In this document: in pieces, positions 5,691 to 58,238 of the stretch
Layout: every line of letters begins with the position of its first letter
Position numbering within the stretch: the first letter of the stretch is position 1
Origin: Chloroflexota bacterium
GTDB taxonomy: Bacteria; Chloroflexota; Limnocylindria; P2-11E
DNA length: 58,651 bases
Assembly (NCBI GenBank): GCA_028876375.1
Contig: JAGWSB010000003.1
Coordinates: forward strand, 1 to 58,651
Reading direction: 5' to 3'
Made by a program: the position numbers and the translations under genes
Notes under the pieces: generated by a model
The model's database searches: none
Told to the model about the DNA's origin: nothing
The model's input: only the letters and a program-made list of their open reading frames with translations

Positions 5691-5901
5691 CGCGCGTCGC
5701 CACCACCTTCAGCAGCGCCCGGACGGCCTTCGCCATCCGGCCCCCGCGGCCGATGACCTTGCCGACGTCCGGCTCGCCGACGCCCAGGTGGAGCTTCAGG
5801 ATGTCGTGGTCCGTCGTCTCGGTGACGACCACGGCGCTGGGGTCCTCGACCAGCTGTCGAGCGATGTGCTCGAGGACCTTTCCCTCGCGCGTCTCGGTCA
5901 T
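5659..5901 (-). CDS. khpA: KH-domain RNA-binding protein KhpA
   Basis: LVEDPSAVVV...DVGKVIGRGGRMAKAVRALL; conserved rpsP-khpA-rimM order. Confidence 0.92.
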   Translation of the reverse strand: MTETREGKVLEHIARQLVEDPSAVVVTETTDHDILKLHLGVGEPDVGKVIGRGGRMAKAVRALLKVVATRDGAKVDLEID

Positions 5902-14419: not shown

Positions 14420-14431
14420 CGGCCTAACAGG

Positions 14432-14638
14432 CTAGGCCGGGCCGGGGGCCGCCCTCTTCGTCTTGATGGTGATGACCTGACGGCCGCGGTAGGTCCCGCA
14501 GCGAGGGCAGGCCTCGTGCGGCTTCTTGAGCGTGCGGCACTGCGGGCACGGCGCCAGCTCGACCTTCGAGAGGGCGAGGTGGCTCCGGCGCTTGCCCTGG
14601 TTCGCGTGGGAATACTTCTTCTTCGGATGTCCAGCCAT
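14432..14638 (-). CDS. rpmF: 50S ribosomal protein L32 (Zn-ribbon type)
   Basis: HPKKKYSHANQGKRRSH...CPQC...PHEACPRCGTYRG. Confidence 0.95.
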   Translation of the reverse strand: MAGHPKKKYSHANQGKRRSHLALSKVELAPCPQCRTLKKPHEACPRCGTYRGRQVITIKTKRAAPGPA

Positions 14639-14642
14639 GCCC

Positions 14643-15179
14643 TTAGTCTTTCACATCCTTCAGCTTCTCGAGCGCGGCCCAGCGCGCGTCGGGCGCCGGC
14701 TCGTGGTCGTGGGGACGCTCGTTGAGGTCCTCCCCGCAGACGGGGCAGAGGCCCCTGCAGCCCGGGCGGCAGAGCGGCGCCTGCGGCGTCGCGAGGATGA
14801 CCTCCTCGCGGATGAGCGGCGTGAGGTCGATGAGGAAGTCCGAGCCGATGGTCTTCGCGTCGCGCGGAGCTGAGGGCATCGGCGCGCCCGTCTCGACGCG
14901 CTCCGTCGCGTAGTACTGCTCCGCGAAGCGCGCGGCGACGGGAGAGTGGATCGGCCGCAGGCAGCGCACGCACTGCTGCGCGACCTCCGCGCGGACGCCG
15001 CCCTCGAGGTACGCGCCGGGGTCCGTGTGCGTCGCCTTGATGTCCGCGTCGAACGCCGTGATGTCGGCGTCGAGGAGCCCCGCGTTGTCACCGCGCGGAT
15101 CGACCGGCGACTCCTGCACGTGCAGATCCATGTGGTCGCCGACCGACTGCTTCAGCAAGGGCGCGACGCTGACCTTCAC
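14643..15179 (-). CDS. yceD: DUF177/YceD family protein
   Basis: CVRCLRP, IDLTPLIREEVIL, LCRPGCRGLCPVCGEDLN, DARWAALEKL; upstream of rpmF. Confidence 0.9.
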   Translation of the reverse strand: MKVSVAPLLKQSVGDHMDLHVQESPVDPRGDNAGLLDADITAFDADIKATHTDPGAYLEGGVRAEVAQQCVRCLRPIHSPVAARFAEQYYATERVETGAPMPSAPRDAKTIGSDFLIDLTPLIREEVILATPQAPLCRPGCRGLCPVCGEDLNERPHDHEPAPDARWAALEKLKDVKD

Positions 15180-15182
15180 CGG

Positions 15183-15647
15183 TCACGCCTCCGCCGGCGC
15201 GGCCTTTCGCTCCTCCAGTACCTCGAGGCTCTTCCGCACGACCCCGAGCGTCTTCTCGAGATCGCCCTGGAGACGAAGGAGGACGTCGGACGCGTACTGG
15301 TCCGCTCCACGCATCGTCTCCTCCGCGCGCTGCTCCGCGCGCCCGGCGATGTCCTCGGCGCGCTTCTCGGCCTCCGCCAAGATGGCTTGATCCTGCAGGA
15401 GGAGTGCCGCCTGCTCCTGACCCGCGGCGATGATCCGCTCGGCCTCCTCGCGCGCATGGCCGAGCACGCGGTCGGTCTCCTGGATCGTGCGCCGTGCCTG
15501 GCGCACCTCTTCCGGGATGGCGACGCGGAGCTGGTCGATGAGGTCGAGGAGCGCGGCCTGCTCGAGGATCACCTGATCCGTCATCGGGACCTTGCGAGCG
15601 TGTACGACGAGGGATTCGAGCCGCTCCACCAGGAACTGCATGTCCAC
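15183..15647 (-). CDS. Coiled-coil protein (ATPase subunit b / DivIVA-like family usually next to rsmD-coaD)
   Basis: LVERLESLVVHARKVPMTDQVILEQAALLDLIDQLRVAIPEEVRQA...GADQYASDVL. Confidence 0.8.
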   Translation of the reverse strand: MDMQFLVERLESLVVHARKVPMTDQVILEQAALLDLIDQLRVAIPEEVRQARRTIQETDRVLGHAREEAERIIAAGQEQAALLLQDQAILAEAEKRAEDIAGRAEQRAEETMRGADQYASDVLLRLQGDLEKTLGVVRKSLEVLEERKAAPAEA

Positions 15648-15661
15648 CCTGGGTCCCTCCC

Positions 15662-16222
15662 TCAGCTCGGTCGCGGGGCATCGTATCGCAGCAGGAGGAG
15701 CGCCTCCTCCCCGATCTCCTTGGTCCGCTCCACCGCGGCGTCCGCGGGGATCGCCGGAAGATGCTTGCGCAGCACACGAGCGACCACGAGCGCGCCCGGC
15801 GCGAGGCCGGCGCGGAGCCCGGGGCTGCGCAGCGTCGCGGAGAGGCCGGCGACGTCGGCGAACGGCGGGTCGCAGAACACGAGATCGAACGGCCCCGCGG
15901 GCGCGCCGCCCAGGAATGCCCCGACGTCCCGCGCGACGACGGTCGACCGCCCCGCGAAGCCCGTCGACGCGAGGTTGCGGCGGAGCGCGGAGAGCGCCCC
16001 GCGGTCGCGCTCGACGAAGGTCGCGTGCTCCGCGCCGCGGGAGAGGGCCTCGATGCCCAGCGTCCCCGCGCCGGCGTAGAGGTCGAGCACCCGCGCTCCC
16101 GCGAGGAGAGGCTCGAGGACGGCGAACAGGCTCTCGCGGATCCGCTCGGTCGCCGCGCGCGTGACGCTCGCCGGCGGGGCGACGAGCGCGCGGCCCTTCG
16201 CCTCGCCGGCCACGACGCGCAT
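15662..16222 (-). CDS. rsmD: 16S rRNA (guanine966-N2)-methyltransferase RsmD
   Basis: MRVVAGEAKGR, RIRESLF, VLDLYAGAGTLGIEALSRGA, FDLVFCDPPF. Confidence 0.94.
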   Translation of the reverse strand: MRVVAGEAKGRALVAPPASVTRAATERIRESLFAVLEPLLAGARVLDLYAGAGTLGIEALSRGAEHATFVERDRGALSALRRNLASTGFAGRSTVVARDVGAFLGGAPAGPFDLVFCDPPFADVAGLSATLRSPGLRAGLAPGALVVARVLRKHLPAIPADAAVERTKEIGEEALLLLRYDAPRPS

Positions 16223-45038: not shown

Positions 45039-46019
45039 CTAGCCTCGCGCTCCCGCGTACACCGGCGTCACCCACGAGCGATAGCGCGGCTCATCGCCGT
45101 GGACCGCCTTGAAGTACACGTCGCGGATGCGCTTCGTGATCGGTCCGAGCGCTCCGTCGCCGATCGCGCGGTGGTCGATGCTCTCGATGTAGTTCAGCTG
45201 CGTCCCGGTGCCGCAGAGGAACGCCTCGTCGGAGATGTAGAGCTCGGTCCGGTCGACCGTGCGCACCTGGACCGGGATGCCCTCGTCGTGCGCGATGCGC
45301 ATGAGGCTCGAGCGAACGATGCCCTCGAGGATGTTGTCCGTACCCGGAGGCGTGATGAGCGTGCCGTCGCGCACGATGAACAGGTTCTCCGCGCTGCCCT
45401 CGGACACGCTCCCGTCGGCGTTGAGGACGATCGCCTCGTCGTAGCCGGCCTCGACGGCCTCCGTCTTGGCCAGCGCCGCGTTGACGTACGCGCCCGTCAG
45501 CTTGCTGCGCGCGGGGATCGCGTTGTCGTCGGTCCGTCGCCACGACGAGACGCCGCAGCGGACACCGCGGTCGATGTCGAGGTACGTCCCGAAGGGGATG
45601 GCGAACACGGTGAAGGAGTCCTCGAGGTCGTGGAGGCGTACGCCGATGACCTCGCTGCGCTTGAAGGCGATCGGCCGGATGTACGCGTCCTCTTTGTAGC
45701 CCGAGCGCCGCAGCACCTCGAGCGTGATCTCCGACAGCTCGTCCACGCTCTGCGGCAGCGAGATGCGCATGATCCGGCACGACCGGTGGATCCGCTCGAA
45801 GTGCTCGCGCAGGTGGAGCACGTACAGCTGGGTCTCCGCCGCGTTCCAGTAGGCGCGGATCCCTTCGAACACGCCGGTCCCGTAGTTGAACGCGTGGGTC
45901 ATGACGCTGACCTTCGCGTCCTTGAGCGGGACGAACCTCCCGTCGAGGTAGGCCCATGCGCTTTCGGAGGCGGTCCCCTGCTTCGGCCTCGCGGCTGGAC
46001 GCTCGAGCTCCTTGACCAT
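45039..46019 (-). CDS. ilvE: Branched-chain amino acid aminotransferase
   Basis: THAFNYGTGVFEGIRAY, YIRPI, SKLTGAYVN, EGSAENLF, ILEGIVR, FLCGTG. Confidence 0.93.
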   Translation of the reverse strand: MVKELERPAARPKQGTASESAWAYLDGRFVPLKDAKVSVMTHAFNYGTGVFEGIRAYWNAAETQLYVLHLREHFERIHRSCRIMRISLPQSVDELSEITLEVLRRSGYKEDAYIRPIAFKRSEVIGVRLHDLEDSFTVFAIPFGTYLDIDRGVRCGVSSWRRTDDNAIPARSKLTGAYVNAALAKTEAVEAGYDEAIVLNADGSVSEGSAENLFIVRDGTLITPPGTDNILEGIVRSSLMRIAHDEGIPVQVRTVDRTELYISDEAFLCGTGTQLNYIESIDHRAIGDGALGPITKRIRDVYFKAVHGDEPRYRSWVTPVYAGARG

Positions 46020-46149
46020 TCCTCGCTCCTTATACCTGTCCGGTCGCACGGACCGCAGGTCCCGTGCCGCCCTTTTCAGATCGTGACATTAGCGCGTTCC
46101 GAAGGTCCCGAGCCTCTCGACGAATGCTGGAACGGACAGGGCCGAGCAG

Positions 46150-46175
46150 TACCATCCCGCCGGCTGGTCTGACCA
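46150..46175 (+). promoter_or_regulatory. oxlT promoter -10 (TACCAT) and FadR-type operator TGGTCTGACCA
   Basis: TACCAT 46150-46155; TGGT-CTG-ACCA 46165-46175 matches the TGGT-N3-ACCA FadR-subfamily consensus. Confidence 0.7.
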
Positions 46176-46237
46176 AGGCTTCAGGATCCGATGTTCCCCG
46201 GCGATCCGGGGACATACATCCAAAGTGGAGGTTGGGC

Positions 46238-47809
46238 GTGAGTTCCGCGACCACCGCGGCACCCATCAGCGAACGCGAGGACCTGCTTCAGAACCGTTGG
46301 CTCATCCTCGTGGCGGGCATCGTCTGCATGATCGCGATCGCGAACTACCAGTACGGGTGGACGCTCTTCGTGACCCCGCTCCAGAAGGCTCTCCACGCGA
46401 ACAGCGCGGCACCGATCCAGGTCGCGTTCAGCGTCTTCGTGCTCCTCGAAACGTGGCTCGTCCCCTTCGAGGGCTGGCTCGTGGACAAGTTCGGCCCTCG
46501 GAACCTCGTCCTGATCGGCGGCATCCTCGCCGGCGCGGGCTGGTACTTCTCCGGCAGCGCGACGACGCTCACGCAGCTCTACCTGGCATACGCGCTCTCC
46601 GGCGTCGGAGCCGGCATCGTCTACGGAACGTCGGTCGGGAACGGGCTCAAGTGGTTCCCCGACCGCCGCGGGCTGGCCGCGGGCCTCACCGCGATGGGAT
46701 TCGGCGCCGGCGCCGCTCTCACCGTGCTGCCGATCCAGAGCATGATCAGCAGCGCCGGCTATCAGGCGACGTTCCAGCAGTGGGGGATCATGCAAGGGAT
46801 CGTCGTCGTCATCGCCGCGCTCTTCCTCAAGGCACCGCCGAAGGGCTGGCTCCCCCGGACCTGGACGCTCGAGGCGGCCGCCAACGAGGTCCGCAAGCGC
46901 CAGACCGCGCTCGACTTCACGCCGGGCGAGATGGCGGCGACGAAGCAGTTCTGGATCCTCTACGTCATGATGACCTTGGTCGCGACCGGCGGCCTCATGG
47001 CGACCGCTCAGATCGGTCCCATGGCCGCGAGCTTCAAGGTCGACAAGTTCCCCATCTCCTTCCTCTGGATCCAGATGACCGCGCTCACCTTCGCGCTCTC
47101 GGCGAACAACGTCATCAACGGCGTGTGCCGTCCGTTCTGGGGCTGGGTCTCGGACCACATCGGCCGCGAGAGAACGATGTCGCTCGCCTTCGGCCTCGAG
47201 GGCCTGGCGATCACCCTCCTCATCCTCTCGCTCCAGCTCTTCAAGAGCCCCATCCTGTTCGTGGTCATGAGCGCGTTCAGCTTCTTCGGCTGGGCCGAGA
47301 TCTTCTCGCTCTTCCCCGCGACGGCGGGAGACTTCTTCGGCCGCAAGTACGCGACCACGAACTACGGCTTCCTCTACACGGCGAAGGGCACGGCCTCCGT
47401 CTTCGTGCCGATCGGCTCCGCGCTCGCCGCGGGTCAAGCGTTCGACTTCCGCGCCGACGTGCTCTTGCTCATCGGCGCGCTGCTGATCTTCTTCACGATG
47501 TTCCTCGCTCCGACGGCGCTGCGCCTCGCGCTCAGCCCGACCGTCCGTAACGCGCTCTTCGTGGTGGCCGGGGTGTTCCTCCTGTACGGGCTGGCCCTCA
47601 CGGTCGTCCCCACGATGTGGGCGCCGTTCGCGCTCAAGCCGGTCGCGCCGAACGTCGGCTGGGGCGGCGTGTTCGCGGTCGCCGTCGTCTTCGACTGGTG
47701 CGCCGCGATCTTCGCGTTCTTCATCCTGCGCCGGATGGCCATCCCGGCGGCGGGCACGCGGCCGAGCGTCGGCCGGGAGCCCGCGGTGGCGCCCGCGCCC
47801 GCCGACTGA
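46238..47809 (+). CDS. oxlT: Oxalate/formate antiporter family (OFA/OxlT-like) MFS transporter with extra TM hairpin
   Basis: NRWLILVAGIVCMIAIANYQYGWTLF, KWFPDRRGLAAG, NGVCRPFWGWVSDHIGRE, FGRKYATTNYGFLYTAKG; GTG 46238 after SD GGAGG. Confidence 0.82.
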   Translation: MSSATTAAPISEREDLLQNRWLILVAGIVCMIAIANYQYGWTLFVTPLQKALHANSAAPIQVAFSVFVLLETWLVPFEGWLVDKFGPRNLVLIGGILAGAGWYFSGSATTLTQLYLAYALSGVGAGIVYGTSVGNGLKWFPDRRGLAAGLTAMGFGAGAALTVLPIQSMISSAGYQATFQQWGIMQGIVVVIAALFLKAPPKGWLPRTWTLEAAANEVRKRQTALDFTPGEMAATKQFWILYVMMTLVATGGLMATAQIGPMAASFKVDKFPISFLWIQMTALTFALSANNVINGVCRPFWGWVSDHIGRERTMSLAFGLEGLAITLLILSLQLFKSPILFVVMSAFSFFGWAEIFSLFPATAGDFFGRKYATTNYGFLYTAKGTASVFVPIGSALAAGQAFDFRADVLLLIGALLIFFTMFLAPTALRLALSPTVRNALFVVAGVFLLYGLALTVVPTMWAPFALKPVAPNVGWGGVFAVAVVFDWCAAIFAFFILRRMAIPAAGTRPSVGREPAVAPAPAD

Positions 47810-47831
47810 CCTTCGCGCGACCGAAGCGCCT

Positions 47832-47862
47832 CGAAGGGCGGTGGCTGTGCCACCGCCCTTCG
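47832..47862 (+). terminator. GC-rich hairpin after oxlT, probable terminator
   Basis: CGAAGGGCGGTGGC-TGT-GCCACCGCCCTTCG, 14-bp stem, weak U tract. Confidence 0.55.
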
Positions 47863-47886
47863 TCGTTTCCCGCACACTGGCGCGGC

Positions 47887-48975
47887 ATGACCCCGCTCGA
47901 CGTCGTCTTCGTCGTGGGCGCGTTCGCGCTCATCCTCGTCGGAGCCGAGCTCTTCACGGGCGGGATCGAATGGCTGGGCATCAAGCTCGACCTCTCCCAC
48001 GGCGCGACGGGGAGCGTCCTGGCGGCCATCGGCACGGCGACGCCCGAGACGCTCATCCCCATCGTGGCCATCCTCTTCACGCGCAGCGCCGCCGCGGACG
48101 AGATCGGCGTCGGCGCCATCCTCGGAGCGCCCTTCATGCTCGGTACGCTCGTCATGTTCCTCATCGGGCTGACGGCGTACGTGCTCCGCCGCCGGCGGCG
48201 GCGTACGACGCTCCGGATCGACGCCGCGCACGCGTCGCGCGACCTCGCCTTCTTCGTCGTCCTCTACGCGCTCGCTCTCACGCTCGCGCTCCTCCCGCGG
48301 GACCTCCGTTTCCTGAAGGGCTACGTCGGCTGGGTCTTCCTGCCCGCCTACTTCGTGTACCTCTATCTCGTCCTGCGCACGCCCAAGCGGACCACGAAGC
48401 TCGACCGCGAGGAGGAGAAGGAAGAGGAGGAGGCCTTCGAGGACCTCTCCTTCGCCGCCTACCTCCGCCGCCTCGGCGCCAAGGTGCGGACGGGGTCGCC
48501 GCCGCTGTGGCTGATCCTCACCCAGGTGGTCATCTCGTTCGGGGCGATCCTCGTCGGCGCGCGGTTCTTCGCCACGTTCGTCGACGACCTGTCCACGGCG
48601 CTGGGGCTCGACGCGCTCCTCGTCGCGCTGATCCTCGCGCCGCTCGCGACGGAGCTGCCGGAGGCGGCCAACAGCCTCATCTGGACGCGCGAGGGCAAGG
48701 ACGTGATCGCTCTCGGGAACGTCGCGGGCGCGATGGTCTTCCAGTCGACGATCCCCGTCTCGATCGGCGTGCTCCTCACGCCGTGGCAGCTCGGACCCTA
48801 CGGGACGATCGCCGCCGTGTTCGCGCTCCTCTCCGGTGTGGTCGTCTACGCCCAGATCCGGCTGCGCGCGCGCCAGAACTCGCTGCCCCTGTCATCGCTC
48901 ATGATCGGCGGCAGCCTGTACGTCCTTTTCATCGTCTATGTGGTCTGGACGGTGGCGACCGGCCAGACCTCTTGA
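47887..48975 (+). CDS. Sodium/calcium exchanger (CaCA, YrbG-like) family antiporter
   Basis: Two alpha repeats: LAAIGTATPET and LAPLATELPE...GNVAG. Confidence 0.85.
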   Translation: MTPLDVVFVVGAFALILVGAELFTGGIEWLGIKLDLSHGATGSVLAAIGTATPETLIPIVAILFTRSAAADEIGVGAILGAPFMLGTLVMFLIGLTAYVLRRRRRRTTLRIDAAHASRDLAFFVVLYALALTLALLPRDLRFLKGYVGWVFLPAYFVYLYLVLRTPKRTTKLDREEEKEEEEAFEDLSFAAYLRRLGAKVRTGSPPLWLILTQVVISFGAILVGARFFATFVDDLSTALGLDALLVALILAPLATELPEAANSLIWTREGKDVIALGNVAGAMVFQSTIPVSIGVLLTPWQLGPYGTIAAVFALLSGVVVYAQIRLRARQNSLPLSSLMIGGSLYVLFIVYVVWTVATGQTS

Positions 48976-49105
48976 GCGGGACCTCCGGACCATGCGGGAG
49001 CGACCGCTCGACCGGTCCGGCGGCATGCGCCTGAGATAGCATCCGGCGCGGCCTCCCCGACCGACGCTTCCCGGGCAGGCGGGGCCAGAGGGAGGGCATG
49101 CCTTC

Positions 49106-50188
49106 ATGAAGCGTCTCCTCGCGTTCGCACTCATGACCATGACCGTCGCCGCCGCCTGCGGCGGCGGGGCCGGGACCGCGAGCCCGAGCCCCTCGGCGGC
49201 CGCGACCAGCGCGGCACCGAGCAAGACGGCCGCGCCGACGGCGGCGGCCGTCAAGGTCGGCCTCGTCACCGACGTCGGGGGCCTCAACGACAAGAGCTTC
49301 AACGCGCTGGCGAACCAGGGTCGCCTCGACGCCGAGAAGGACCTCAAGGTCCAGACGTCGGTCACCGAATCCAAGAAGCAGGAGGACTACGTCCCGAACC
49401 TGACCAACTACGCGCAGCAGAAGTACGACCTCGTCATCGCCGTCGGCTTCCTCATGACGAACGCCACGTGGAAGGTCGCGAAGCAGTTCCCCGACGTCAA
49501 GTTCGCGATCATCGACGGCGCTCCGGCGAACGACAAGGGCGACACCGAGAACCTGCCGAACGTCGCGAACCTGTTCTTCAAGGAGCAGGAGGCCGGATAC
49601 CTCGTCGGCGTCATCGCCGCGACGATGGCGAAGAACAAGGTGGGCAAAGCGACGCACAACACGGTGTGCTCGATGGGCGGCATCCCCATCCCGCCGGTCG
49701 ATCGCTACATCGCGGGCTACCAGGACGCGGTCAAGACCGTCAGCCCGACGACGACGATCCTCAACGGCTACAGCAATGACTTCGTCGACCAGGCCAAGGG
49801 CAAAGAGGTCGGGCTCAACCACATCAGCAAGAACTGCGACATCCTCTTCCAGGTCGCGGGCGCCAGCGGCCTCGGCTACATCCAGGCCGCGAAGGACAAG
49901 GGCGTCTACGCCATCGGCGTCGACGCCGACCAGGCCTACGTCGCCCCCGGAACGGTGCTCACGAGCGCGCTCAAGCGCGTCAACAAGGCGGTCTACGACA
50001 CCATCAAGGCCGTCGTGAACAAGACCTTCAAGGCCGGCGACAACTCCTTCAACGCGACGAACGACGGCGTCGGCTACGGCACGCTCGACCCGGCGGTCCC
50101 CGCCGACGCGAAGGCCGCCGCCGACAAGGCCCTCGCGGACATCAAGAGCGGGAAGATCACGCCCAAGGACGCGGTCCAGGTCAAGTAA
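49106..50188 (+). CDS. BMP-family ABC substrate-binding lipoprotein (nucleoside-type)
   Basis: Lipobox VAAAC, DVGGLNDKSFN, FKEQEAGYLVG, AGASGLG, IGVDADQ. Confidence 0.92.
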   Translation: MKRLLAFALMTMTVAAACGGGAGTASPSPSAAATSAAPSKTAAPTAAAVKVGLVTDVGGLNDKSFNALANQGRLDAEKDLKVQTSVTESKKQEDYVPNLTNYAQQKYDLVIAVGFLMTNATWKVAKQFPDVKFAIIDGAPANDKGDTENLPNVANLFFKEQEAGYLVGVIAATMAKNKVGKATHNTVCSMGGIPIPPVDRYIAGYQDAVKTVSPTTTILNGYSNDFVDQAKGKEVGLNHISKNCDILFQVAGASGLGYIQAAKDKGVYAIGVDADQAYVAPGTVLTSALKRVNKAVYDTIKAVVNKTFKAGDNSFNATNDGVGYGTLDPAVPADAKAAADKALADIKSGKITPKDAVQVK

Positions 50189-50192
50189 GGCC

Positions 50193-51323
50193 TTGACCGT
50201 CCACGCACAGACGTCACCGACGGGGCCGCCAGCGGCCCCGTCGGTGCGTCAACCGAGCTTCGACTGGACGCAGGGTCCCGCGATCCCGGTGGTGTCGGTC
50301 CTATTCGCGCTCGTGCTCGGCGGCCTCTTCGTGTGGATCAGCGGGCACGACCCCATCCAGGCGTACGCGGCGCTCTTCCGCGGCGCGTTCGGCAGTCCCT
50401 ACGACGTCAGCGAGACGCTCGTCATCGCCGTTCCCCTCCTGCTCGCCGGCCTCTCCGTCGCCGTCGCGTTCCGCGCCGGGCTCTTCAACATCGGCGCGCA
50501 GGGGCAGCTCCTCGTCGGCGCGGTCGCCGCGGGCTGGGTCGGCGCGCTGTGGCCCGACCTTCCCGGGATCCTCCTCCTCCCGCTCACCCTCGCCGCGGGC
50601 GTTCTCGGCGGCGCGGCCTACGGCGGGATAGCCGGGTGGCTGAAGGCCGCGCGCGGGGTGAACGAGGTGATCACGACGATCATGCAGAACTACACCATCG
50701 TCTTCGTCATGCACTGGCTGCTCCAGAACGGTCCGATGCAGGCGCCGAACGCGTTCGGCACGCCGGCGTCGGCGCCGATCGGCGCCGGCGCGATCCTCCC
50801 GATCGTCCTCCCCGACTTCCTCGTCCCCTCGTCGCGCCTCCACGCGGGGATCGTCCTCGCGCTCCTGGCGACGCTCGGCTTCTGGTTCCTGCTCTGGCGG
50901 ACCTCGCTCGGGTACGAGCTGCGCGCGGTGGGGCTCGGGATGCGCGCGGCGGCGCAGGCGGGGATCGACCCGCGGAAGCGGATGGTGATCGTGATGGCCA
51001 TCGCCGGCGGCTTCGCCGGCCTCGCGGGCATGATCCAGGTGAGCGGGCTCTTCCACCGCGTGTACGACGGGTTCTCCGCGGGCTTCGGCTTCGACGCCAT
51101 CGCGGTCGCGCTCCTCGGCAAGAACACCCCGGTGGGCGTCCTGCTCTCGGCGCTCCTCTTCGCCGCCTTCTCGCGCGGCGGGACGCTCATGCAGTCCGAC
51201 GCCGAGATCTCGTCCCACCTCGTCGAGATCGTCGAGGCCCTCGTGCTGTTCGTCATCGCCGCCGAGACCGTCGTGCGCGCCGTCGCGCGGCGCTGGGGCC
51301 GACCCGTCAAGGCGGCGAGCTAG
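50193..51323 (+). CDS. Nucleoside ABC transporter permease 1
   Basis: AFRAGLFNIGAQGQ, GVNEVITTIM, GFDAIAVALLG. Confidence 0.9.
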   Translation: MTVHAQTSPTGPPAAPSVRQPSFDWTQGPAIPVVSVLFALVLGGLFVWISGHDPIQAYAALFRGAFGSPYDVSETLVIAVPLLLAGLSVAVAFRAGLFNIGAQGQLLVGAVAAGWVGALWPDLPGILLLPLTLAAGVLGGAAYGGIAGWLKAARGVNEVITTIMQNYTIVFVMHWLLQNGPMQAPNAFGTPASAPIGAGAILPIVLPDFLVPSSRLHAGIVLALLATLGFWFLLWRTSLGYELRAVGLGMRAAAQAGIDPRKRMVIVMAIAGGFAGLAGMIQVSGLFHRVYDGFSAGFGFDAIAVALLGKNTPVGVLLSALLFAAFSRGGTLMQSDAEISSHLVEIVEALVLFVIAAETVVRAVARRWGRPVKAAS

Positions 51324-52262
51324 GTGGAGGTCCTCATCGGCGCGGGCGTCCTCGCCGCGACCATCCGCCTCGCCACGCCCGTCGCCCTCGCCGCGCTGGG
51401 CGGCGTCGTCACCGAGCGCTCCGGCGTCGTGAACATCGCGCTCGAGGGCTGCATGCTCGTCGGCGCCTTCTTCGGCGTGTTCGCCGCCGACAAGACCGGC
51501 AGCCTCCCCGCGGCGCTCGCGGTCGCGATCCTCGCGGGCCTCGCGCTCGCGGCGATGCACGCCGTCGCCGCGATCACGTTCCGCGCCGACCAGATCGTGA
51601 GCGGCATGGCGCTCAACATCCTGGCGCTCGGGCTCACCTCCTACCTCGACTACCAGCTGTACAGCAGCACCGGGACGCCGCCGACGATCCCGCTCGTGCC
51701 CAACGTCCACCTCGGCTTCCTGGAGAAGGTGCCCGTCCTCGGCGGCGCGGTCGGCGACCAGAGCGCGATCGTGTGGGTGACGCTCGCGATCGTCGTGTTC
51801 CTCCAGCTCTTCCTCTTCCGCACCGTCCCCGGCCTGCGCCTGCGCTCGGTCGGGGAGCACCCGCGGGCGGCCGACACGCTCGGCATCGACGTCCGCCGCA
51901 CGCGCTACTGGGCCGTCCTCGCGTCGGGCGCGCTCGCCGCGCTCGGCGGGGTGTACCTCTCGCTCTCGGTCGCCGGCTCCTTCAGCGACAACATGACGAA
52001 CGGCAAGGGGTTCATCGGGCTGGCCGCGATGATCTTCGGACGCTGGACGCCGCTCGGCGCTCTCGGCGCCGCGCTCGTCTTCGGCTACGGCGACGCGCTC
52101 TCCGTCTCGCTCCAGGGTGTCGAGGTCGCGGGCTTCGTCTTCCCCGTGCAGCTCCTCTCGACCATCCCCTATCTGCTCACCATCCTCGCCGTCGCCGGCT
52201 TCGTCGGCAGGTCGCGGATGCCGGCCGCCGACGGCCAGCCGTACGAGAGCGAAGGGCACTGA
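51324..52262 (+). CDS. Nucleoside ABC transporter permease 2
   Basis: ERSGVVNIALEG, GLRLRSVGEHP, GKGFIGLAAMIFGRW, TIPYLLT. Confidence 0.92.
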   Translation: MEVLIGAGVLAATIRLATPVALAALGGVVTERSGVVNIALEGCMLVGAFFGVFAADKTGSLPAALAVAILAGLALAAMHAVAAITFRADQIVSGMALNILALGLTSYLDYQLYSSTGTPPTIPLVPNVHLGFLEKVPVLGGAVGDQSAIVWVTLAIVVFLQLFLFRTVPGLRLRSVGEHPRAADTLGIDVRRTRYWAVLASGALAALGGVYLSLSVAGSFSDNMTNGKGFIGLAAMIFGRWTPLGALGAALVFGYGDALSVSLQGVEVAGFVFPVQLLSTIPYLLTILAVAGFVGRSRMPAADGQPYESEGH

Positions 52263-53779
52263 TGGACACGCCGATCGTCGAGATGGCCCGCATCAGCAAG
52301 CGGTTCGGCGATCTGCAGGCGCTCGCCGAGGTCGACCTCACCGTCCACAAGGGCGACATCCACGCGCTCGTGGGCGAGAACGGCGCGGGCAAGACGACGC
52401 TCATGAACATCCTCTACGGCCTCTACCGCCCGGACGCGGGGACCATCCGCGTGCGCGGCACGGAAGCGCACATCGCGGGGCCGCGCGACGCCATCGCGCT
52501 CGGGATCGGCATGATCCACCAGCATTTCATGCTCGTTCCGCCCCTCACCGTCGCCGAGAACGTCGTGCTCGGCGACGAGCGCGGCGGCCCGGTCCTCGAC
52601 ACGCGCGGCATCGAGGCGCGCGTCGCCGAGCTGGAGAAGCGATTCGGCATCCAGGCCGAACCCCGCGCGAAGATCGAGGACGTTCCGCTGGGGATCCAGC
52701 AGCGCGTCGAGATCCTCAAGGTCCTCTACCGCGGCAGCGAGATCCTCATCTTCGACGAGCCGACGGCCGTGCTCACGCCGCAGGAGGTCGACGATCTGTT
52801 CCACATCGTCCGTACGCTCCGCGACGAAGGAAAGACCGTGATCCTCATCACGCACAAGCTCCGCGAGGTGATGGCGGTCTCCGACCACGTCACGGTCCTG
52901 CGCGAAGGCCGCAACGCCGCCCACCTCGTCACGAAGGAGACGGACCCGAGGGCGATCGCGGTCGCGATGGTCGGGCGAGAGCTGCGCGACATCCGCGTCC
53001 GGCCGGGCAACGTCGGCCCGGCCGTGCTCGAGATCACGAGCCTCAGCGCCGAGTCCGACCGCGGTGGCCTCGCGCTGAAGGGCGTCGACGTCGAGGTCCA
53101 CGCCGGCGAGGTCGTGGGCATCGCCGGCGTCGGCGGGAACGGCCAGAGCGAGCTCGCGCAGTGCATCCTCGGGCTGCGCAAGGTCACCGGCGGTGTCATC
53201 AAGGTCGGCGGCAGCGACGTCGCCCACGACGATCCGCGCCGCACGCGACAGCGCGGCGTGGCCTACGTCCCCGAGGACCGTCGGGCGGAAGGCCTCGTGC
53301 TCCCGTTCACCCTCGCCGACAACTTCATCCTCGGCCGGCAGGACCAGCCGCCGTACGCGCGTCGCGGCATCCTCCAGGGCCGGGTCATCCGTCGCGAGGG
53401 CGAGCGCCTGGCCAAGGAGTTCGACGTGCGCCCGCCCGACCCCGACGTCGAGGTGGGAACGCTGTCGGGTGGGAACCAGCAGAAGGTCGTCCTCGGCCGC
53501 GAGATCTCCGAGTCTCCAAGGCTCATCGTCGCGAACCAGCCGACGCGCGGCCTCGACATCGCGGCGACGGAGTACGTCCACGAGCGCCTCCTCGAGCAGC
53601 GCTCGCGCGGCTGCGCGATCCTCCTCATCTCGAGCGAGCTCGACGAGATCCTCGACCTCTCCGATCGGATCGCGGTGATGTTCGAGGGTCGCATCGTCGC
53701 CGTCCTGCCGGCCGCCGAGGCCACCGAGGAGCGGCTGGGCCTCCTCATGGCCGGCCACGTCGAGGGGGTCCCGGCCTAA
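52262..53779 (+). CDS. Nucleoside/sugar ABC transporter ATPase (two NBDs)
   Basis: GENGAGKTT, FDEPTAVL, AGVGGNGQ, LSGGNQQK, NQPTRGLD. Confidence 0.94.
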   Translation: MDTPIVEMARISKRFGDLQALAEVDLTVHKGDIHALVGENGAGKTTLMNILYGLYRPDAGTIRVRGTEAHIAGPRDAIALGIGMIHQHFMLVPPLTVAENVVLGDERGGPVLDTRGIEARVAELEKRFGIQAEPRAKIEDVPLGIQQRVEILKVLYRGSEILIFDEPTAVLTPQEVDDLFHIVRTLRDEGKTVILITHKLREVMAVSDHVTVLREGRNAAHLVTKETDPRAIAVAMVGRELRDIRVRPGNVGPAVLEITSLSAESDRGGLALKGVDVEVHAGEVVGIAGVGGNGQSELAQCILGLRKVTGGVIKVGGSDVAHDDPRRTRQRGVAYVPEDRRAEGLVLPFTLADNFILGRQDQPPYARRGILQGRVIRREGERLAKEFDVRPPDPDVEVGTLSGGNQQKVVLGREISESPRLIVANQPTRGLDIAATEYVHERLLEQRSRGCAILLISSELDEILDLSDRIAVMFEGRIVAVLPAAEATEERLGLLMAGHVEGVPA

Positions 53780-53826
53780 GGGCGAAGCCCGATCGGCGCC
53801 GATCCATTTCCGACCTCCTCGCGGGG

Positions 53827-53887
53827 TTGACCGTGGTCACCGCCCAACGTACCGTTCCCCGGTCGGGTGGTCAGGCCACCTGACCGG
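53827..53887 (+). promoter_or_regulatory. Sigma70 promoter and overlapping FadR-type operator palindrome
   Basis: TTGACC 53827-53832, 17-bp spacer, TACCGT 53850-53855; CCGGTCGGGTGG-TCAGG-CCACCTGACCGG 53859-53887 containing TGGTCAGGCCA 53868-53878. Confidence 0.78.
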
Positions 53888-53913
53888 AACCAGTGACGAA
53901 GGCGGGAGGTGCG

Positions 53914-54675
53914 ATGGCTCTCGTTCAGCCCGTCCGGCGTGACCGGCTCTATCAGGGCATCGTCGCGCAGATCGAGGGTCTCCTCGAGCGCGGCGAGCTG
54001 AAGGCGGGCGATCAGCTGCCGCCCGAGCGCCAGCTGGCGGAGCAGCTCCAGGTCAGCCGCGCGTCGGTGCGCGAAGCGCTCCGATCCCTCGAGCTCCTCG
54101 GGATCGTCGAGACGCACGCGGGCGGCGGAACGTTCGTGAGGCACGCCCAGCCCGACGACCTGGCGCGACCCCTCACCAGCCTCATCAGCCGCGGCCACAC
54201 CATCGCCGACGTCATCGACGTCCGCGGTCTGCTCGAGCCCGCCATCGCGGAGCGCGCCGCGCGCAACATCGCGCCCGCCGAGATCTCCGAGCTGCGCGAG
54301 ATCCTCGCCGCGCAGGAGAAGAAGGTCGCGGCCGGCGAGCCCTACGTCGAGGAGGACACGCGCTTCCACGAGCTCATCGGCCAGGCGGCGGGCAACGAGC
54401 TCCTGGTCACGGTCGTGGGGGTGATCTGGGACGTCCTCCGCTCCTCGCGTGAGCAGTGGCTGCAGAACGAGGACCGCGCCCATGCTTCGCTCGAGGCCCA
54501 TCGGCGGATCCTCGTCGCGCTCGAGAAGCACGAGCCCGCGGCCGCCAAGGCGGCGGCGGCGGACCACATCCGCGCCGTCGGGGAAGGGATCCTCCGCCTC
54601 CTCGGGGAGGACGGGGCATCCCGGCGGGCGCACCCGGGACGGACACACAAGGATCAGGAGGTGGACACGGCGTGA
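53914..54675 (+). CDS. FadR-subfamily GntR regulator (PdhR/LldR/GlcC-like)
   Basis: GDQLPPERQLAEQLQVSRASVREALRSL; FCD with DTRFH, H and H metal-type residues. Confidence 0.93.
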   Translation: MALVQPVRRDRLYQGIVAQIEGLLERGELKAGDQLPPERQLAEQLQVSRASVREALRSLELLGIVETHAGGGTFVRHAQPDDLARPLTSLISRGHTIADVIDVRGLLEPAIAERAARNIAPAEISELREILAAQEKKVAAGEPYVEEDTRFHELIGQAAGNELLVTVVGVIWDVLRSSREQWLQNEDRAHASLEAHRRILVALEKHEPAAAKAAAADHIRAVGEGILRLLGEDGASRRAHPGRTHKDQEVDTA

Positions 54676-55805
54676 CCCAAGCGACAGCAGCACCGCCACA
54701 GACCGCGGCGGCGACGGACATCACGATCGAGGTCGTCTACCGCGGGATCTTCCAGAAGACGCTCGCGCAGCGCATCACGCGCGGCGTCGTCCTGGCCGCC
54801 CGGCAGAAGGGACTGCCGGGGACCGCGTTCTCGCGCTACGGCGACTCGCCGGAGCGCAACGGCGTGCCCGCGAAGCAGTTCGCCGTCGTCGCCGTGAACG
54901 ACATCGAGCTCGAGGCCTCGATGGCGCGCTACGAGCCGGCCGTCGTGGACGTCTCGGTCGCCGTCGACGACACGCTCGTCAAGGGCGTCGAGTCGTGGGC
55001 CTGGTACGGGCGCCAGCCGATCTGGAAGCCCGTGCGCCCGAACGGCGTCGTCCTCGTGACCAGCGACAAGTCGCCCGACGAGATCGTCGCGCAGACGGAC
55101 AAGACGGACCGTCCCTACACGCTCGGCGTGGTCCCCGGCGGCGCGTCCTTCGCCGGACTGTGGGTCTACAAGGACGACCACACCGATTGGCGCGTCCTCG
55201 GCGCGCTGTCCAAGGTCCTTCCCGAGTGGCTTCCGCTCGAAGAGGTCAAGGCGCAGGTGCGGCGGCAGACCAAGGACGAGAACGCCGTCGCGTCCGTCCA
55301 GTCCGGCCACGACGCGACGAAGCTCCGCCAGGTCAAGGTCGGCGAGGGCACCGACGCGCACGAGAAGCTCGGCTTCACGAAGCCCGGCTGGACGACGATG
55401 CGCACCGGCGTCATCGTCGACGCGCGGAAGCCCGGCGAGCGCAATCCGCAGTACAAGCGCTACGCCACGCGCACCCAGCGTCCCGTCGTCAACTTCGACA
55501 CCTGCATCAAGTGCACGATGTGCTGGCTCGACTGCCCCGACGAGTGCTTCGAGGTGACGCCGAGCGGCCACTTCGAGGTCGTCTACGAGGCCTGCGTGGG
55601 CTGCGGCATCTGCGCGCAGGTGTGTCCGGTCAAGGACTGCATCGTCATGGTCGACGAGCTCAAGTTCGACTCCAACAAGCTCGTCTTCCCGGTATGGGAG
55701 AAGGACCGCAACACGTACAACGCGTGGTTCGAGAGGACGAGCGGCCGCTCGGCCGCGCCCCCCACGGGCGAGAAGGCCGCTGTCGCGGCGGGAGGTGACG
55801 AGTAA
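54672..55805 (+). CDS. 2-oxoacid:ferredoxin oxidoreductase gamma-delta fusion subunit, oxalate oxidoreductase delta-like
   Basis: N-terminal gamma-like domain (YGDSPERNGVP) plus TRTQRPV and two CxxCxxCxxxCP ferredoxin motifs (CIKCTMCWLDCP, CVGCGICAQVCP). Confidence 0.85.
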   Translation: MTQATAAPPQTAAATDITIEVVYRGIFQKTLAQRITRGVVLAARQKGLPGTAFSRYGDSPERNGVPAKQFAVVAVNDIELEASMARYEPAVVDVSVAVDDTLVKGVESWAWYGRQPIWKPVRPNGVVLVTSDKSPDEIVAQTDKTDRPYTLGVVPGGASFAGLWVYKDDHTDWRVLGALSKVLPEWLPLEEVKAQVRRQTKDENAVASVQSGHDATKLRQVKVGEGTDAHEKLGFTKPGWTTMRTGVIVDARKPGERNPQYKRYATRTQRPVVNFDTCIKCTMCWLDCPDECFEVTPSGHFEVVYEACVGCGICAQVCPVKDCIVMVDELKFDSNKLVFPVWEKDRNTYNAWFERTSGRSAAPPTGEKAAVAAGGDE

Positions 55806-57037
55806 TGGCTGTCGCCGTCAAGACCACGGAGACCAGCGACGTCCAGACCGAGCAGCTCATGACGGGCTGCGAGGCCATCGCCGAGGCGATCCGCCTCGCG
55901 GACGTCGACGTCATGGCCGCCTTCCCCATCCGGCCGTACGACACGGTCATGCAGGCCGCCGCGAAGCTCATCGCCAACGGCAAGCTGGACTGCGAGTACA
56001 TCGTCGCCGACGGCGAGCACAGCCAGTTCGAGATCGTGAAGCACGCCTGCGCCGTCGGCTCGCGCGTCTTCGTCGGCTCCTCGGGCGTCGGCTGGTTCTA
56101 CGCCTTCGAGGCCATCGCCGTCACCGCCGGCCTGCGCCTTCCGGTCGTCGCCATCTGCGGCAACCGCGCCCTCGACGACCCCGGCGCGTTCGGCACCGAG
56201 CACAACGACTCGCTCGCCGTCCGCGACCTCGGATGGCTGCTCCCGTGGGCCGAGACGGCGCAGGAGTGCCTCGACCTCGCGCTCATGGCGTGGCGCGTCG
56301 GCGAGGACAAGCGCGTCTCGCTGCCGGTCGCCATCGGCCTGGACGGCGGCTTCCTCACCCATTCCCAGCAGCTCGTGAGCGTCCCGACGAAGGCCGCCGC
56401 GGACGCCTACCTTCCGCGCTTCGACCTCGGCGACCGCCTCCTGCACCCCGACAACCCCATCACCATCGCGCCGCAGGTCGACCAGGACTGGCTCATGGAG
56501 ATCCGGCGTCAGAACGACGCGGCGATGCGCCGCGCGCTCGAGGTCATCGCCGAGGCGCACGCGGACCTCAAGAAGCTCTTCGGCCGCGGCGGCGACAGCC
56601 CGTTCCTCGACGAGTACATGACCGATGACGCCGACGTCGTGTTCTTCGGCCAGGGCACGCTCGCCCTGCCGATGAAGGTCGCCATCCGGCGCCTGCGCAA
56701 GCAGGGCCACAAGGTCGGACTCGTCCGGCTCAAGTGGTTCCGGCCCTTCCCGACCGACGAGGTCGTCAGGAGCCTCTCGCGCTTCAAGGCCGTCGGCATC
56801 GTGGACCGCGACTACAGCTTCGGCTCGCCGTACTACGGCGGCGTCCTCTACAACGAGGTGCGCTCCGCCCTGTACTCGCGCGACGAGCGTCCGACCATCG
56901 TCGGCTTCGTCGCCGGCCTCGGCGGGCGCGAGATCGACCAGACCATGGCCCAGGACATCTACGACAAGACGGCCGCCGCCGCGGCGGGCGGCCTGGCGGC
57001 CGGCGACCAGTGCCACTGGATCGGAGTTCGGGAGTGA
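55805..57037 (+). CDS. 2-oxoacid:ferredoxin oxidoreductase alpha subunit, oxalate oxidoreductase-like
   Basis: RLADVDV, FPIRPY, DGEHSQ, GSSGVG, NRALDDPGAFGTEH, RVGEDKRV, FRPFP, AGLGG. Confidence 0.9.
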   Translation: MAVAVKTTETSDVQTEQLMTGCEAIAEAIRLADVDVMAAFPIRPYDTVMQAAAKLIANGKLDCEYIVADGEHSQFEIVKHACAVGSRVFVGSSGVGWFYAFEAIAVTAGLRLPVVAICGNRALDDPGAFGTEHNDSLAVRDLGWLLPWAETAQECLDLALMAWRVGEDKRVSLPVAIGLDGGFLTHSQQLVSVPTKAAADAYLPRFDLGDRLLHPDNPITIAPQVDQDWLMEIRRQNDAAMRRALEVIAEAHADLKKLFGRGGDSPFLDEYMTDDADVVFFGQGTLALPMKVAIRRLRKQGHKVGLVRLKWFRPFPTDEVVRSLSRFKAVGIVDRDYSFGSPYYGGVLYNEVRSALYSRDERPTIVGFVAGLGGREIDQTMAQDIYDKTAAAAAGGLAAGDQCHWIGVRE

Positions 57038-57133
57038 GAACGAAGAGCGAGCGAGATCCGGCTTCGCCGGGCGAGCAAGCGACAAACGATGCACGCGGCG
57101 CAGCCGCGAGCCTGCACTAGGAGGGAGATGGAA

Positions 57134-58189
57134 ATGGCTGTGGAAGCACCGACCGGGACCGGCACCCTCCCCCAGATCAAGGGCGTCAAGGAGGTCCCCT
57201 ACGACGAGCTCTTCGTCTCCGGCCACCGCACGTGCCAGGGCTGCGAGTCGGCGCTCGTCATGCGTCACATGGTCAAGGCGTCGGGTCCGCGCACGATCGT
57301 GCTCGGCTCGACGGGCTGCATGTACGTCGCGAACACGACGTACTACTCGACCCCGTGGGTGGTGCCGTGGATGCACACCCAGCTGGGCGCGGCCGGATCG
57401 GCCGCGCTCGGGACCGCCGCGGGCCTCAAGGTCCTCATGCGCAAGGGCAAGCTCGCTCGCGAGAAGATCAACGTCATCGCGTTCTGCGGCGACGGCGGCG
57501 GAGCGGACATGGGGATCGGCGCGATCTCCGCGGCGCTGACGCACAAGGAGTACGACCTCCTCGTCCTCCTCTACGACAACGAGTCGTACGCGAACACCGA
57601 CATCCAGCTGTCGAGCCAGACGCCGTGGGGCGCGGTCACGACGTTCTCTCCGACCGGGAGCGAGCGCCGGATCATGCACACGCGCTGGAAGAAGAACGTC
57701 CCCGGCATGCTCGCGGCCGGCCACCCCGAGTCCCGCTACATCGCCGCGGGCTGCGCGGCCTACGCCGTCGACCTGATGAACAAGATCCGCAAGGCGCTCG
57801 AGGTCGGCGGTCCGACGTTCGTGCACACGCTCGACCCGTGCCCCAAGGGCTGGGACTACCACCCGCAGTACAGCCAGGAGCTCGGCCACCTCGCCGTCGA
57901 GGCGGGGATCTGGCCGCTCTACGAAGTGCTGGACGGCGTCGTGAACCTCACCGGCCCGACGCGGCAGATCGCCGAGGGCCGCAAGAAGCGCAAGCCCGTC
58001 GAGGACTACCTGCGCCGGCAGGGCCGCTTCGCGCACTTCACCACGGAGGACGTCGAGCACTTCCAGGCCGAGGTCGACAAGATGTGGGAGGAGTGGCTCA
58101 TCCCCGGCGTCATCCCGTTCACCATCCCGCAGAAGGACGTGACCCTCCTCAACATCGACAAGAAGAAGCCGCTGCACGCGACCGCCTGA
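57134..58189 (+). CDS. 2-oxoacid:ferredoxin oxidoreductase beta (TPP-binding) subunit, oxalate oxidoreductase-like
   Basis: GHRTCQGC, TGCMYVANT, TPP motif GDG...YDNESYANT, GHPE, PCPKGW. Confidence 0.9.
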   Translation: MAVEAPTGTGTLPQIKGVKEVPYDELFVSGHRTCQGCESALVMRHMVKASGPRTIVLGSTGCMYVANTTYYSTPWVVPWMHTQLGAAGSAALGTAAGLKVLMRKGKLAREKINVIAFCGDGGGADMGIGAISAALTHKEYDLLVLLYDNESYANTDIQLSSQTPWGAVTTFSPTGSERRIMHTRWKKNVPGMLAAGHPESRYIAAGCAAYAVDLMNKIRKALEVGGPTFVHTLDPCPKGWDYHPQYSQELGHLAVEAGIWPLYEVLDGVVNLTGPTRQIAEGRKKRKPVEDYLRRQGRFAHFTTEDVEHFQAEVDKMWEEWLIPGVIPFTIPQKDVTLLNIDKKKPLHATA

Positions 58190-58209: not shown

Positions 58210-58238
58210 AGAGGGCCCGCCGTGACGGCGGGCCCTCT
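58210..58238. terminator. Hairpin between convergent beta-subunit gene and rpsR
   Basis: AGAGGGCCCGCCG-TGA-CGGCGGGCCCTCT, 13-bp stem. Confidence 0.7.

Follow-up and report, generated by a model that had tools for sequence, protein, structure and literature searches.

An oxalate oxidoreductase-like operon and an OxlT-type transporter gene behind matching predicted FadR-type operators in a Limnocylindria bacterium

The contig JAGWSB010000003.1 of a Chloroflexota bacterium (Limnocylindria; P2-11E) was analyzed over its complete length of 58,651 nucleotides (58.6 kb, 71% G+C; here called the window); its parent assembly, GCA_028876375.1, has 2.6 Mb and is 90% complete. Near one end, the window carries a translationally coupled operon for a GntR/FCD regulator of the FadR subfamily and for the delta, alpha, and beta subunits of a 2-oxoacid:ferredoxin oxidoreductase (OFOR), and upstream of it lies a gene for a major facilitator superfamily (MFS) protein resembling the oxalate transporter OxlT (Table 1). 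A first-pass annotation had proposed that these genes form an oxalate oxidation system built on an enzyme like the oxalate oxidoreductase (OOR) of Moorella thermoacetica, and we consider that reading probable. Gene calls were guided by a frame analysis of G+C at third codon positions (GC3). The layout is as had been described: the GTG start of the delta gene (54672) overlaps the fadR stop codon as GTGA, the delta and alpha genes overlap as TAATG at 55805, and the transporter gene lies about 6 kb upstream, with a Na/Ca exchanger gene and a BMP-type ABC transporter intervening. The beta gene would more likely start at ATG 57128 or 57134, which gives the N terminus MAVE... seen in relatives, than at the first ATG (57089), 39 to 45 nt earlier. 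The GTG start codon of oxlT is preceded by GGAGG.

Table 1. Features of the locus in the window, in order of position
Feature	Position	Strand	Evidence or remark
Class IV aminotransferase	45039-46049	-	GC3-guided gene call
-10-like hexamer TACCAT of the putative oxlT promoter	46150-46155	+	Read from sequence; -35 weak
Predicted operator O1, TGGTCTGACCA, perfect palindrome (FadR/GntR type)	46165-46175	.	62 nt before oxlT start codon, 9 nt after TACCAT
OxlT-type MFS transporter (OFA family), 523 aa	46238-47809	+	TIGR04259, PDB 8hpj
Terminator-like hairpin 3' of oxlT, 14-bp stem	47832-47862	+	Folding -41.4 kcal/mol, z -5.2
Na/Ca-exchanger family gene	47887-48975	+	
BMP/PnrA-family ABC transporter (binding protein, two permeases, ATPase)	49106-53779	+	
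fadR-operon promoter, -35 TTGACC, 17-nt spacer, -10 TACCGT	53827-53855	+	Read from sequence
Predicted operator O2, TGGTCAGGCCACCTGACCG	53868-53886	.	12 nt after TACCGT -10
GntR/FCD (FadR-subfamily) regulator	53914-54675	+	Alternative start GTG 53893
OFOR delta subunit (domain III fused to 2x[4Fe-4S] ferredoxin domain V), 377 aa	54672-55805	+	
OFOR alpha subunit (domains I and II), 410 aa	55805-57037	+	
OFOR beta subunit (domain VI, thiamine diphosphate and proximal cluster)	57128/57134-58189	+	
Terminator-like hairpin closing the operon, 13-bp stem	58211-58237	.	Folding -37.7 kcal/mol, z -3.75

For all three enzyme subunits, the closest solved structure is that of Moorella OOR (PDB 5c4i). The alpha subunit matches 5c4i_A at 2.3e-99, compared with 9.4e-62 for the pyruvate:ferredoxin oxidoreductase (PFOR) of Methanosarcina (9bt4_B), and the beta subunit matches 5c4i_C at 1.5e-82, compared with 4.6e-59 for the same PFOR. 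The delta subunit matches 5c4i_B (3.8e-17) in two stretches, corresponding to domain III and the ferredoxin domain. When delta was modeled with AlphaFold (28-sequence alignment; predicted local distance difference test score, 71), the top fold matches were without exception delta chains of Moorella OOR (E of ~4e-20 over ~340 columns), and stand-alone PorC/gamma proteins ranked after them. Since these matches run across both domains, they confirm the fusion of domains III and V that is typical of OOR and, with it, the three-subunit layout with a gamma-delta fusion that the first-pass annotation had described.

A phylogeny, suggested earlier as a check on this assignment, leads to the same placement. 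The tree was calculated for the alpha subunit only, by a quick tree search, and comprised 64 sequences (the window's own, 20 relatives from named genomes, 50%-identity cluster representatives, the second OFOR of the genome, and two PDB sequences). The window alpha subunit and Moorella OOR fall into one 25-row clade with an SH-aLRT (Shimodaira-Hasegawa-like approximate likelihood ratio test) support of 100, and all PITP-type enzymes (39 representatives) lie outside it, so that there is no grouping with pyruvate enzymes. Within the clade, a 22-row subclade with the window sequence is sister to Moorella OOR plus P0127, and P0128 stands between. The close homologues come from metagenome-assembled genomes named Chloroflexota or Candidatus Limnocylindria, and every one of them is labeled "pyruvate ferredoxin oxidoreductase" at its source. 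Sequence, fold, and phylogeny therefore all set the enzyme beside Moorella OOR and away from the PITP-type enzymes.

Diagnostic residues give a finer picture. In the literature (PMC5020499), the YPIRP motif is called unique to OOR, Arg31 of the alpha subunit is the site of oxalate's second carboxylate, and Asp116 of the alpha subunit acts together with Arg31 in a "bait and switch" mechanism. The window alpha subunit reads FPIRPY, in line with the PIRP for PITP reported at first pass, and its Arg43 corresponds to Moorella Arg31; relatives read YPIRP, and the Arg is invariant in the subfamily. It is also confined to the OOR clade, as none of the 39 sampled sequences outside has it and most of these read PITP. 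Arg121 aligns with Moorella Arg109 but is conserved in PFORs too and so does not discriminate. The beta motifs that had been assigned to OOR are all present (GHRTCQGC, TGCMYVANT, GHPE, and PCPKGW) and all common to Moorella OOR, whereas Methanosarcina PFOR differs from both at every compared motif except GHRxCxGC.

The switch loop is where the window enzyme departs from Moorella OOR. It reads A-L-D124-D125-P-G-A128-F, which puts Ala128 at the position of Asp116 and Asp125 at that of Pro113. All 114 subfamily members have RALDDPGAFG[TVC]EH, with Asp116 replaced by Ala and Pro113 by Asp without exception, whereas R[TA]LDPPGDFGSEH is found in 113 of 115 Moorella-type sequences, the remaining two keeping the Asp as well. 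The top NCBIfam model for each subunit is that of OOR, with PorA/PorB as runners-up, and each score is under its cut-off: 383 of 500 bits for alpha (NF045791), 344 of 590 for beta (NF045792), and 96 of 230 for delta (NF045790). Because of these scores and the altered loop, the enzyme is OOR-like without being an equivalog of the Moorella enzyme, and by its sequence it is a member of a separate, widespread sister subfamily. It has in common with Moorella OOR (EC 1.2.7.10; PDB 5C4I, 5EXD, and 5EXE; NF045790 to NF045792) the distribution of domains over the subunits (I and II in alpha, VI in beta, III and V in delta), the YPIRP-type Arg, the counterpart of Arg109, the loop frame LDxPGxFGxEH, and the beta motifs; it differs in having ALDDPGAF instead of TLDPPGDF, in a delta subunit about 60 aa longer, and in its host, which has haem-copper oxidases and is not an acetogen. 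With PorABDG (PDB 9BT4), it shares the superfamily, cofactor motifs, and cluster cysteines, but PorABDG has PITP, separate gamma and delta subunits, other beta motifs, and a weaker alpha score.

The transporter is similarly close to a characterized protein. Its score of 501.5 bits on TIGR04259 ("oxalate/formate MFS antiporter") is well above the cut-off of 335, as befits the OFA/OxlT-like transporter first proposed, and it matches OxlT of Oxalobacter formigenes (PDB 8hpj) at an E of 9e-70. The direct oxalate ligands of OxlT, as given in the structure paper (PMC10070484), are Gln34, Tyr35, Tyr124, Arg272, and Lys355, and all are conserved in an alignment to 8hpj, as are Ala147, Asn268, and Trp324. 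Changes are found in the second shell, where Tyr150Phe, Tyr328Phe, and Trp352Tyr keep an aromatic residue and Gln63 is replaced by Val. The protein also passes the cut-off of the SfMCT lactate-transporter model (328 versus 320). Further differences from OxlT (PDB 8HPJ/8HPK) are a partner enzyme that presumably yields no formate and some 100 additional residues at the C terminus, encoded at 47500-47809 and containing two more hydrophobic segments; this extension is common to the Limnocylindria copies L119 and L120 (such handles are ours) and is not found in the 8hpj chain (427 aa) or in proteobacterial and acidobacterial copies (438 to 459 aa). At another Limnocylindria locus (L121, G204:C10, positions 4236-5748), an OxlT-like gene is broken across three frames, which makes it either a pseudogene or a product of misassembly, and a search of its contig gave no operator.

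The regulator links the two units. It has a GntR domain (PF00392, 2.4e-20) and an FCD domain (PF07729, 3.4e-29), and its nearest NCBIfam models are NanR, LldR, PdhR, and GlcC, each of which it misses by cut-off. With these FadR-subfamily regulators, it shares the combination of a winged helix-turn-helix and FCD, a palindromic TGGT-N-ACCA operator just past the -10 element, and the predicted autoregulation of a small-carboxylate operon; unlike theirs, the operator at the fadR promoter has a third half-site, CCTGACCA, which extends it at that promoter only. The family consensus of O2, TGGTCWGACCACCTGACCA, is near-invariant behind a TTGAC-type -35 and a -10 in 16 Limnocylindria loci. The putative oxlT promoter is laid out like that of fadR, with its operator shortly after the -10-like hexamer, although a consensus promoter scan gave nothing there.

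That both units stand behind matching FadR-type operators had been claimed at first pass, and the wider search strengthens the claim. The pattern TGGTCWGRCCA has two sites in the 2.6-Mb assembly, one before oxlT and the other before the fadR operon, and O1 is the sole exact TGGTCWGACCA of the assembly; shuffles of the window give an expectation of 0.04 operator matches. The motif is present in 79 of 91 genomes of the family, with about 150 summed sites compared with 15 for a reversed control, or roughly a tenfold excess. One relative (G057) repeats the layout of the window, operators included, with O1 conserved before oxlT, and in another (G108) oxlT is divergent from fadR with a single operator between the two. 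Because the operators are conserved, restricted to these two promoters, and enriched in the genomes of the family, the predicted co-regulation of oxlT and the oxidoreductase operon by the FadR-type protein is well supported in silico. Divergent genes upstream of fadR in relatives, encoding a small membrane protein or a secreted BNR-like protein, were dropped as inconsistent between loci. Separately, five loci of the genus g5 (L126, L128, L140, L141, and L143) have a conserved TGGTCWGACCA between pheT and a gene for an SBP_bac_5 peptide/opine-type binding protein; these sites are probably targets of a paralogous FadR-type regulator, or chance.

A scan of species-representative genomes for relatives gave at least 600 matching stretches, of which 574 among those listed encode a relative; the best 80 were examined. 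They belong to Limnocylindria, Dehalococcoidia including SAR202, Acidobacteriota, Methylomirabilota/Rokubacteria, Armatimonadota, Rubrobacter, Acetothermia, and Alpha- and Gammaproteobacteria. The order delta-alpha-beta is kept in all loci, and a FadR-type gene is directly upstream of delta in 50 of 81. Among Limnocylindria, 71 of 301 genomes have the alpha gene, and about three quarters of the sampled genomes in the window's own family have it. OxlT above cut-off is much rarer, occurring in 5 of the 80 carrier genomes (75 are without it) and in 3 of 301 Limnocylindria. The expectation that oxlT would be co-regulated and co-distributed with the enzyme is therefore borne out for regulation, through the common operator, and fails for distribution.

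Where OxlT is present, it is mostly linked to the operon. Its gene is directly upstream in two Alphaproteobacteria (L063 and L071) and directly downstream in two Acidobacteriota (L091 and L095), so OxlT adjoins the operon independently in these two groups. Both acidobacterial loci have the order fadR-delta-alpha-beta-oxlT. Next in L095 come genes for an FmdA/AmdA-family amidase and a CN-hydrolase (13774-16072), which may feed in oxamate, oxamide, or formamide; the gene at the matching position of L091 is at 10260-11474. In Dehalococcoidia and SAR202 (L051 to L098, about 20 loci), a flavin mononucleotide-dependent hydroxyacid oxidase gene is directly 3' of the operon, and the same loci encode a ThiO-like glycine oxidase, an Xsc/ALS-like thiamine diphosphate (ThDP) enzyme, a 770-aa double family III CoA-transferase, TenA, and a MaoC-like protein (for example, L060:4394-5533, L068:6886-8637, and L056:2354-4663). 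This neighborhood looks like a larger C2 island for glycolate, glyoxylate, and glycine. Two Moorella-type metagenome loci have FCD regulators and MFS genes nearby. In another locus (L123:4793-10335), a Moorella-type (PPGDF) alpha-beta pair follows a GntR/FCD gene, a gene for a 218-aa protein, and one for a 601-aa Fer4_20 plus pyridine-nucleotide-disulphide oxidoreductase that replaces delta, which suggests an NAD(P)-linked OOR variant.

Most relatives have a different transporter instead of OxlT. In a sister genus (G072), the genes run LytR, aminotransferase IV (on the minus strand), two operators, TctC, a gap that could hold TctB, TctA, the Na/Ca exchanger, the BMP ABC transporter, an operator, and fadR-delta-alpha-beta, which is the synteny of the window with a tripartite tricarboxylate transporter (TTT) at the position of oxlT. 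Six further Limnocylindria loci have TctA or TctB upstream of the exchanger, where the 10-kb flank stops before TctC. At one locus (L034), the site is empty, with neither OxlT nor TctCBA, and the aminotransferase gene adjoins the exchanger gene. Overall, TctA, with or without TctC/TctB, is found in 19 of the 80 loci, in 13 of them together with TctC, and in 11 loci TctC and TctA are within about 3 kb of beta (including six of Methylomirabilota type, one from Sysuimicrobiota, and one from Acetothermia).

The company kept by this TctC family bears on the substrate. An alignment of the TctC proteins from these loci served to scan metagenome contigs, from which 80 loci were kept. An OOR-like beta or alpha gene is among the neighbors in 17 of these, and in 10 the TctC relative adjoins Oxc (1028 bits versus a cut-off of 739), Frc, or both; an OxlT-like gene is beside it in 3, and two of these also have Oxc/Frc and are counted in the 10. 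A tree of TctC places the Oxc/Frc-linked sequences in a clade of 29 rows (SH-aLRT of 100), which has an OOR-linked clade as its sister, and both lie inside a 58-row clade (SH-aLRT of 100) whose other branches are likewise OOR-linked; a TctC homologue from the window's own assembly, sought as an outgroup for rooting, was not found. Since TctC relatives stand beside both oxc/frc and OOR-like genes, one transporter family would seem to serve the textbook oxalate pathway as well as this enzyme. This link, together with the exchange of TctCBA for OxlT at an operator-controlled site, is to our judgment the strongest indirect pointer to oxalate as the substrate. The rarity of OxlT does not break the connection, because a TctCBA system takes over where OxlT is missing, and its family is tied to oxc/frc loci.

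The rest of the genome says something about the setting. The first-pass annotation had noted that Oxc and Frc are absent from the window, and in the whole 90%-complete assembly neither reaches its cut-off (best scores of 188 bits versus 739 for TIGR03254 and 199 versus 504 for TIGR03253); no partner enzyme that would supply formate to the transporter was thus found. The type II oxalate pathway of Frc and Oxc would have its presumed substrate in common with the system described here and is also served by OxlT and by this TctC family; its chemistry is different, however, being a CoA activation with formate as a product. The assembly has two genes for haem-copper oxidase subunit I, and the host is an uncultured oxygen-respiring bacterium of soil or freshwater, not an acetogen. 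A second OFOR of the same genome (C60:19109-23110, L002) reads FPITP, has fused alpha and beta subunits and a gamma-delta gene, and is followed by a PyrK-like FAD/NAD oxidoreductase and a 995-aa GNAT plus ADP-forming acetyl-CoA synthetase. This PITP-type enzyme is probably the real pyruvate or 2-oxoacid oxidoreductase of the genome, and its presence beside the acetyl-CoA synthetase means that the PIRP enzyme would not be needed for pyruvate oxidation.

Of the genes around the system, those 5' of oxlT (aminotransferase IV, LytR, another MFS gene, and others) include none tied to C2 metabolism. The Na/Ca exchanger and the BMP/PnrA ABC transporter are always found between the transporter slot, whether OxlT or TctCBA, and fadR in Limnocylindria (L019 to L035, L119, and L145), and they have no operator 5' of them; a role in calcium handling during the use of calcium oxalate would be speculative. 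At the contig end (58259-58651, minus strand), a truncated gene whose product resembles ribosomal protein S18 by eye is convergent with the operon and shares its hairpin.

We propose that these genes probably make up a two-promoter regulon for the uptake and complete oxidation of oxalate under FadR repression. The FadR-type repressor would bind TGGTCWGRCCA just downstream of the -10 element at its own operon and at the oxlT promoter, and oxalate, or a C2 acid close to it, would release it. The OxlT-type MFS protein, judging from its conserved binding residues, would import oxalate; elsewhere, the importer would be the TctCBA system in most carriers, with OxlT at the same regulated site in the window's genus. 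The three-subunit, ThDP- and [4Fe-4S]-dependent oxidoreductase, with domains I and II in alpha, VI in beta, and III and V in delta, would hold oxalate between Arg43 of the PIRP motif and Arg121, decarboxylate it on ThDP, and release the second CO2 without CoA. By analogy with Moorella OOR, two low-potential electrons would pass through three clusters to ferredoxin. As the products would be only CO2 and electrons, the transporter, regulator, and enzyme would form a self-sufficient module.

There is also a broader reading, to which we give an even chance: that this is a second OOR subfamily in which the switch-loop acid has moved from position 116 to 113, and that aerobes of many uncultured lineages use it to oxidize oxalate to CO2 without CoA, Oxc, or Frc, with OxlT and an oxalate-specific TctCBA being interchangeable. 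The lineages would be Limnocylindria, SAR202 and other Dehalococcoidia, Acidobacteriota, Methylomirabilota, Armatimonadota, Rubrobacter, and some Proteobacteria, and surveys of frc and oxc would then under-count oxalate turnover in soil, groundwater, and the sea.

Several points weigh against oxalate as the substrate. Each subunit scores under its OOR cut-off, the alpha subunit is only about 45% identical to Moorella-type alpha subunits, and the loop exchange is without exception in the subfamily. OxlT is missing from most carriers, and, if oxalate goes to 2 CO2, an OxlT-type antiporter would be left without formate to export, which bears on its counter-substrate and transport mode. At about 40% identity, two TTT binding proteins may well differ in ligand, and the C2 context in Dehalococcoidia and SAR202 fits glyoxylate equally with oxalate.

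It is possible, then, although in our view unlikely, that the same architecture and regulation serve another small polar 2-oxo or C2 acid, such as glyoxylate, oxamate, mesoxalate, or oxaloacetate, in which case the altered loop would mark a shifted specificity, and that acid would be the cargo of the OxlT-like and TctC proteins. The invariant loop difference and the low OOR scores would fit such a shift, but the equivalent of Arg31, which binds oxalate's second carboxylate, is itself invariant. Gln63 of OxlT is Val in the MFS protein, which is also above the SfMCT cut-off, yet this protein matches the OxlT model much more strongly than that of SfMCT (501 versus 328 bits) and keeps both basic ligands. 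The hydroxyacid oxidase, ThiO-like oxidase, CoA-transferase, and ThDP enzyme of the SAR202/Dehalococcoidia loci might point to a different C2 acid, and the acidobacterial FmdA/AmdA amidase and CN-hydrolase after OxlT could mean oxamate or oxamide; routes from glycolate, glycine, and oxamate lead to oxalate as well, however, and many loci have only the enzyme, transporter, and regulator, with no gene for an acyl-CoA or formyl product. The occurrence of the TctC family at true oxc/frc loci also favors oxalate over these acids.

An improbable alternative is that the enzyme deals with intracellular oxalate, as detoxification or as the end step of glyoxylate, ascorbate, or purine breakdown, with import secondary and OxlT acting as an exporter or exchanger. 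In its favor are the exchanger nature of OxlT (PMC10070484), the near-universal presence of the operon in the family (in about three quarters of the genomes sampled), and at least one relative (L034) that lacks both OxlT and TctCBA at the site. Most Limnocylindria loci, on the other hand, have TctCBA there, and both transporters stand under the operator of a catabolic operon. Binding-protein-dependent TTT systems are importers. Least credible of all is an ordinary pyruvate (or branched-chain 2-oxoacid):ferredoxin oxidoreductase with OxlT nearby by coincidence, since the source names of the close homologues and the second-best PorA/PorB models are outweighed by the Arg at the Thr position of the sampled pyruvate enzymes, the fully supported grouping with OOR, the OOR layout of the delta III and V fusion, the separate PITP-type OFOR in the genome, and an operator common to oxlT that chance cannot explain.

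Returning to the proposed FadR-repressed oxalate regulon, the kind of system to which it belongs, an OOR with an OFA transporter and a GntR-type regulator, is one that we take to be known from a single acetogen. To our knowledge, the only characterized OOR comes from a strict anaerobe. The first-pass annotation knew of no report from the present lineage, and in the literature that we searched, OOR is not described from Chloroflexota, SAR202, Acidobacteria, or Rokubacteria. Several things are new. One is a sharply delimited sister subfamily whose switch loop is rearranged. The members of this subfamily are present, under pyruvate-enzyme labels, in oxygen-respiring and mostly uncultured lineages of many phyla. 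Also new are the clean, predicted two-operator regulon and the interchange of OxlT and TTT importers.

Oxalate is a major pool of plant, fungal, and mineral-bound carbon and drives the oxalate-carbonate pathway, and its bacterial consumers are usually counted through frc and oxc. The genes described here currently carry the label of a pyruvate oxidoreductase, which is a matter of annotation; the subfamily is at the same time a natural experiment on the "bait and switch" loop of OOR, and its regulon is a simple one, with one repressor, two operators, and swappable transporters. The use of a low-potential Fe-S enzyme by an oxygen respirer is a question that these results raise. If the subfamily does oxidize oxalate, abundant aerobic lineages of soil, groundwater, and the sea would have an OFOR-based, CoA-free route for doing so, and surveys limited to the usual oxalate genes would have been missing a probable oxalate route.

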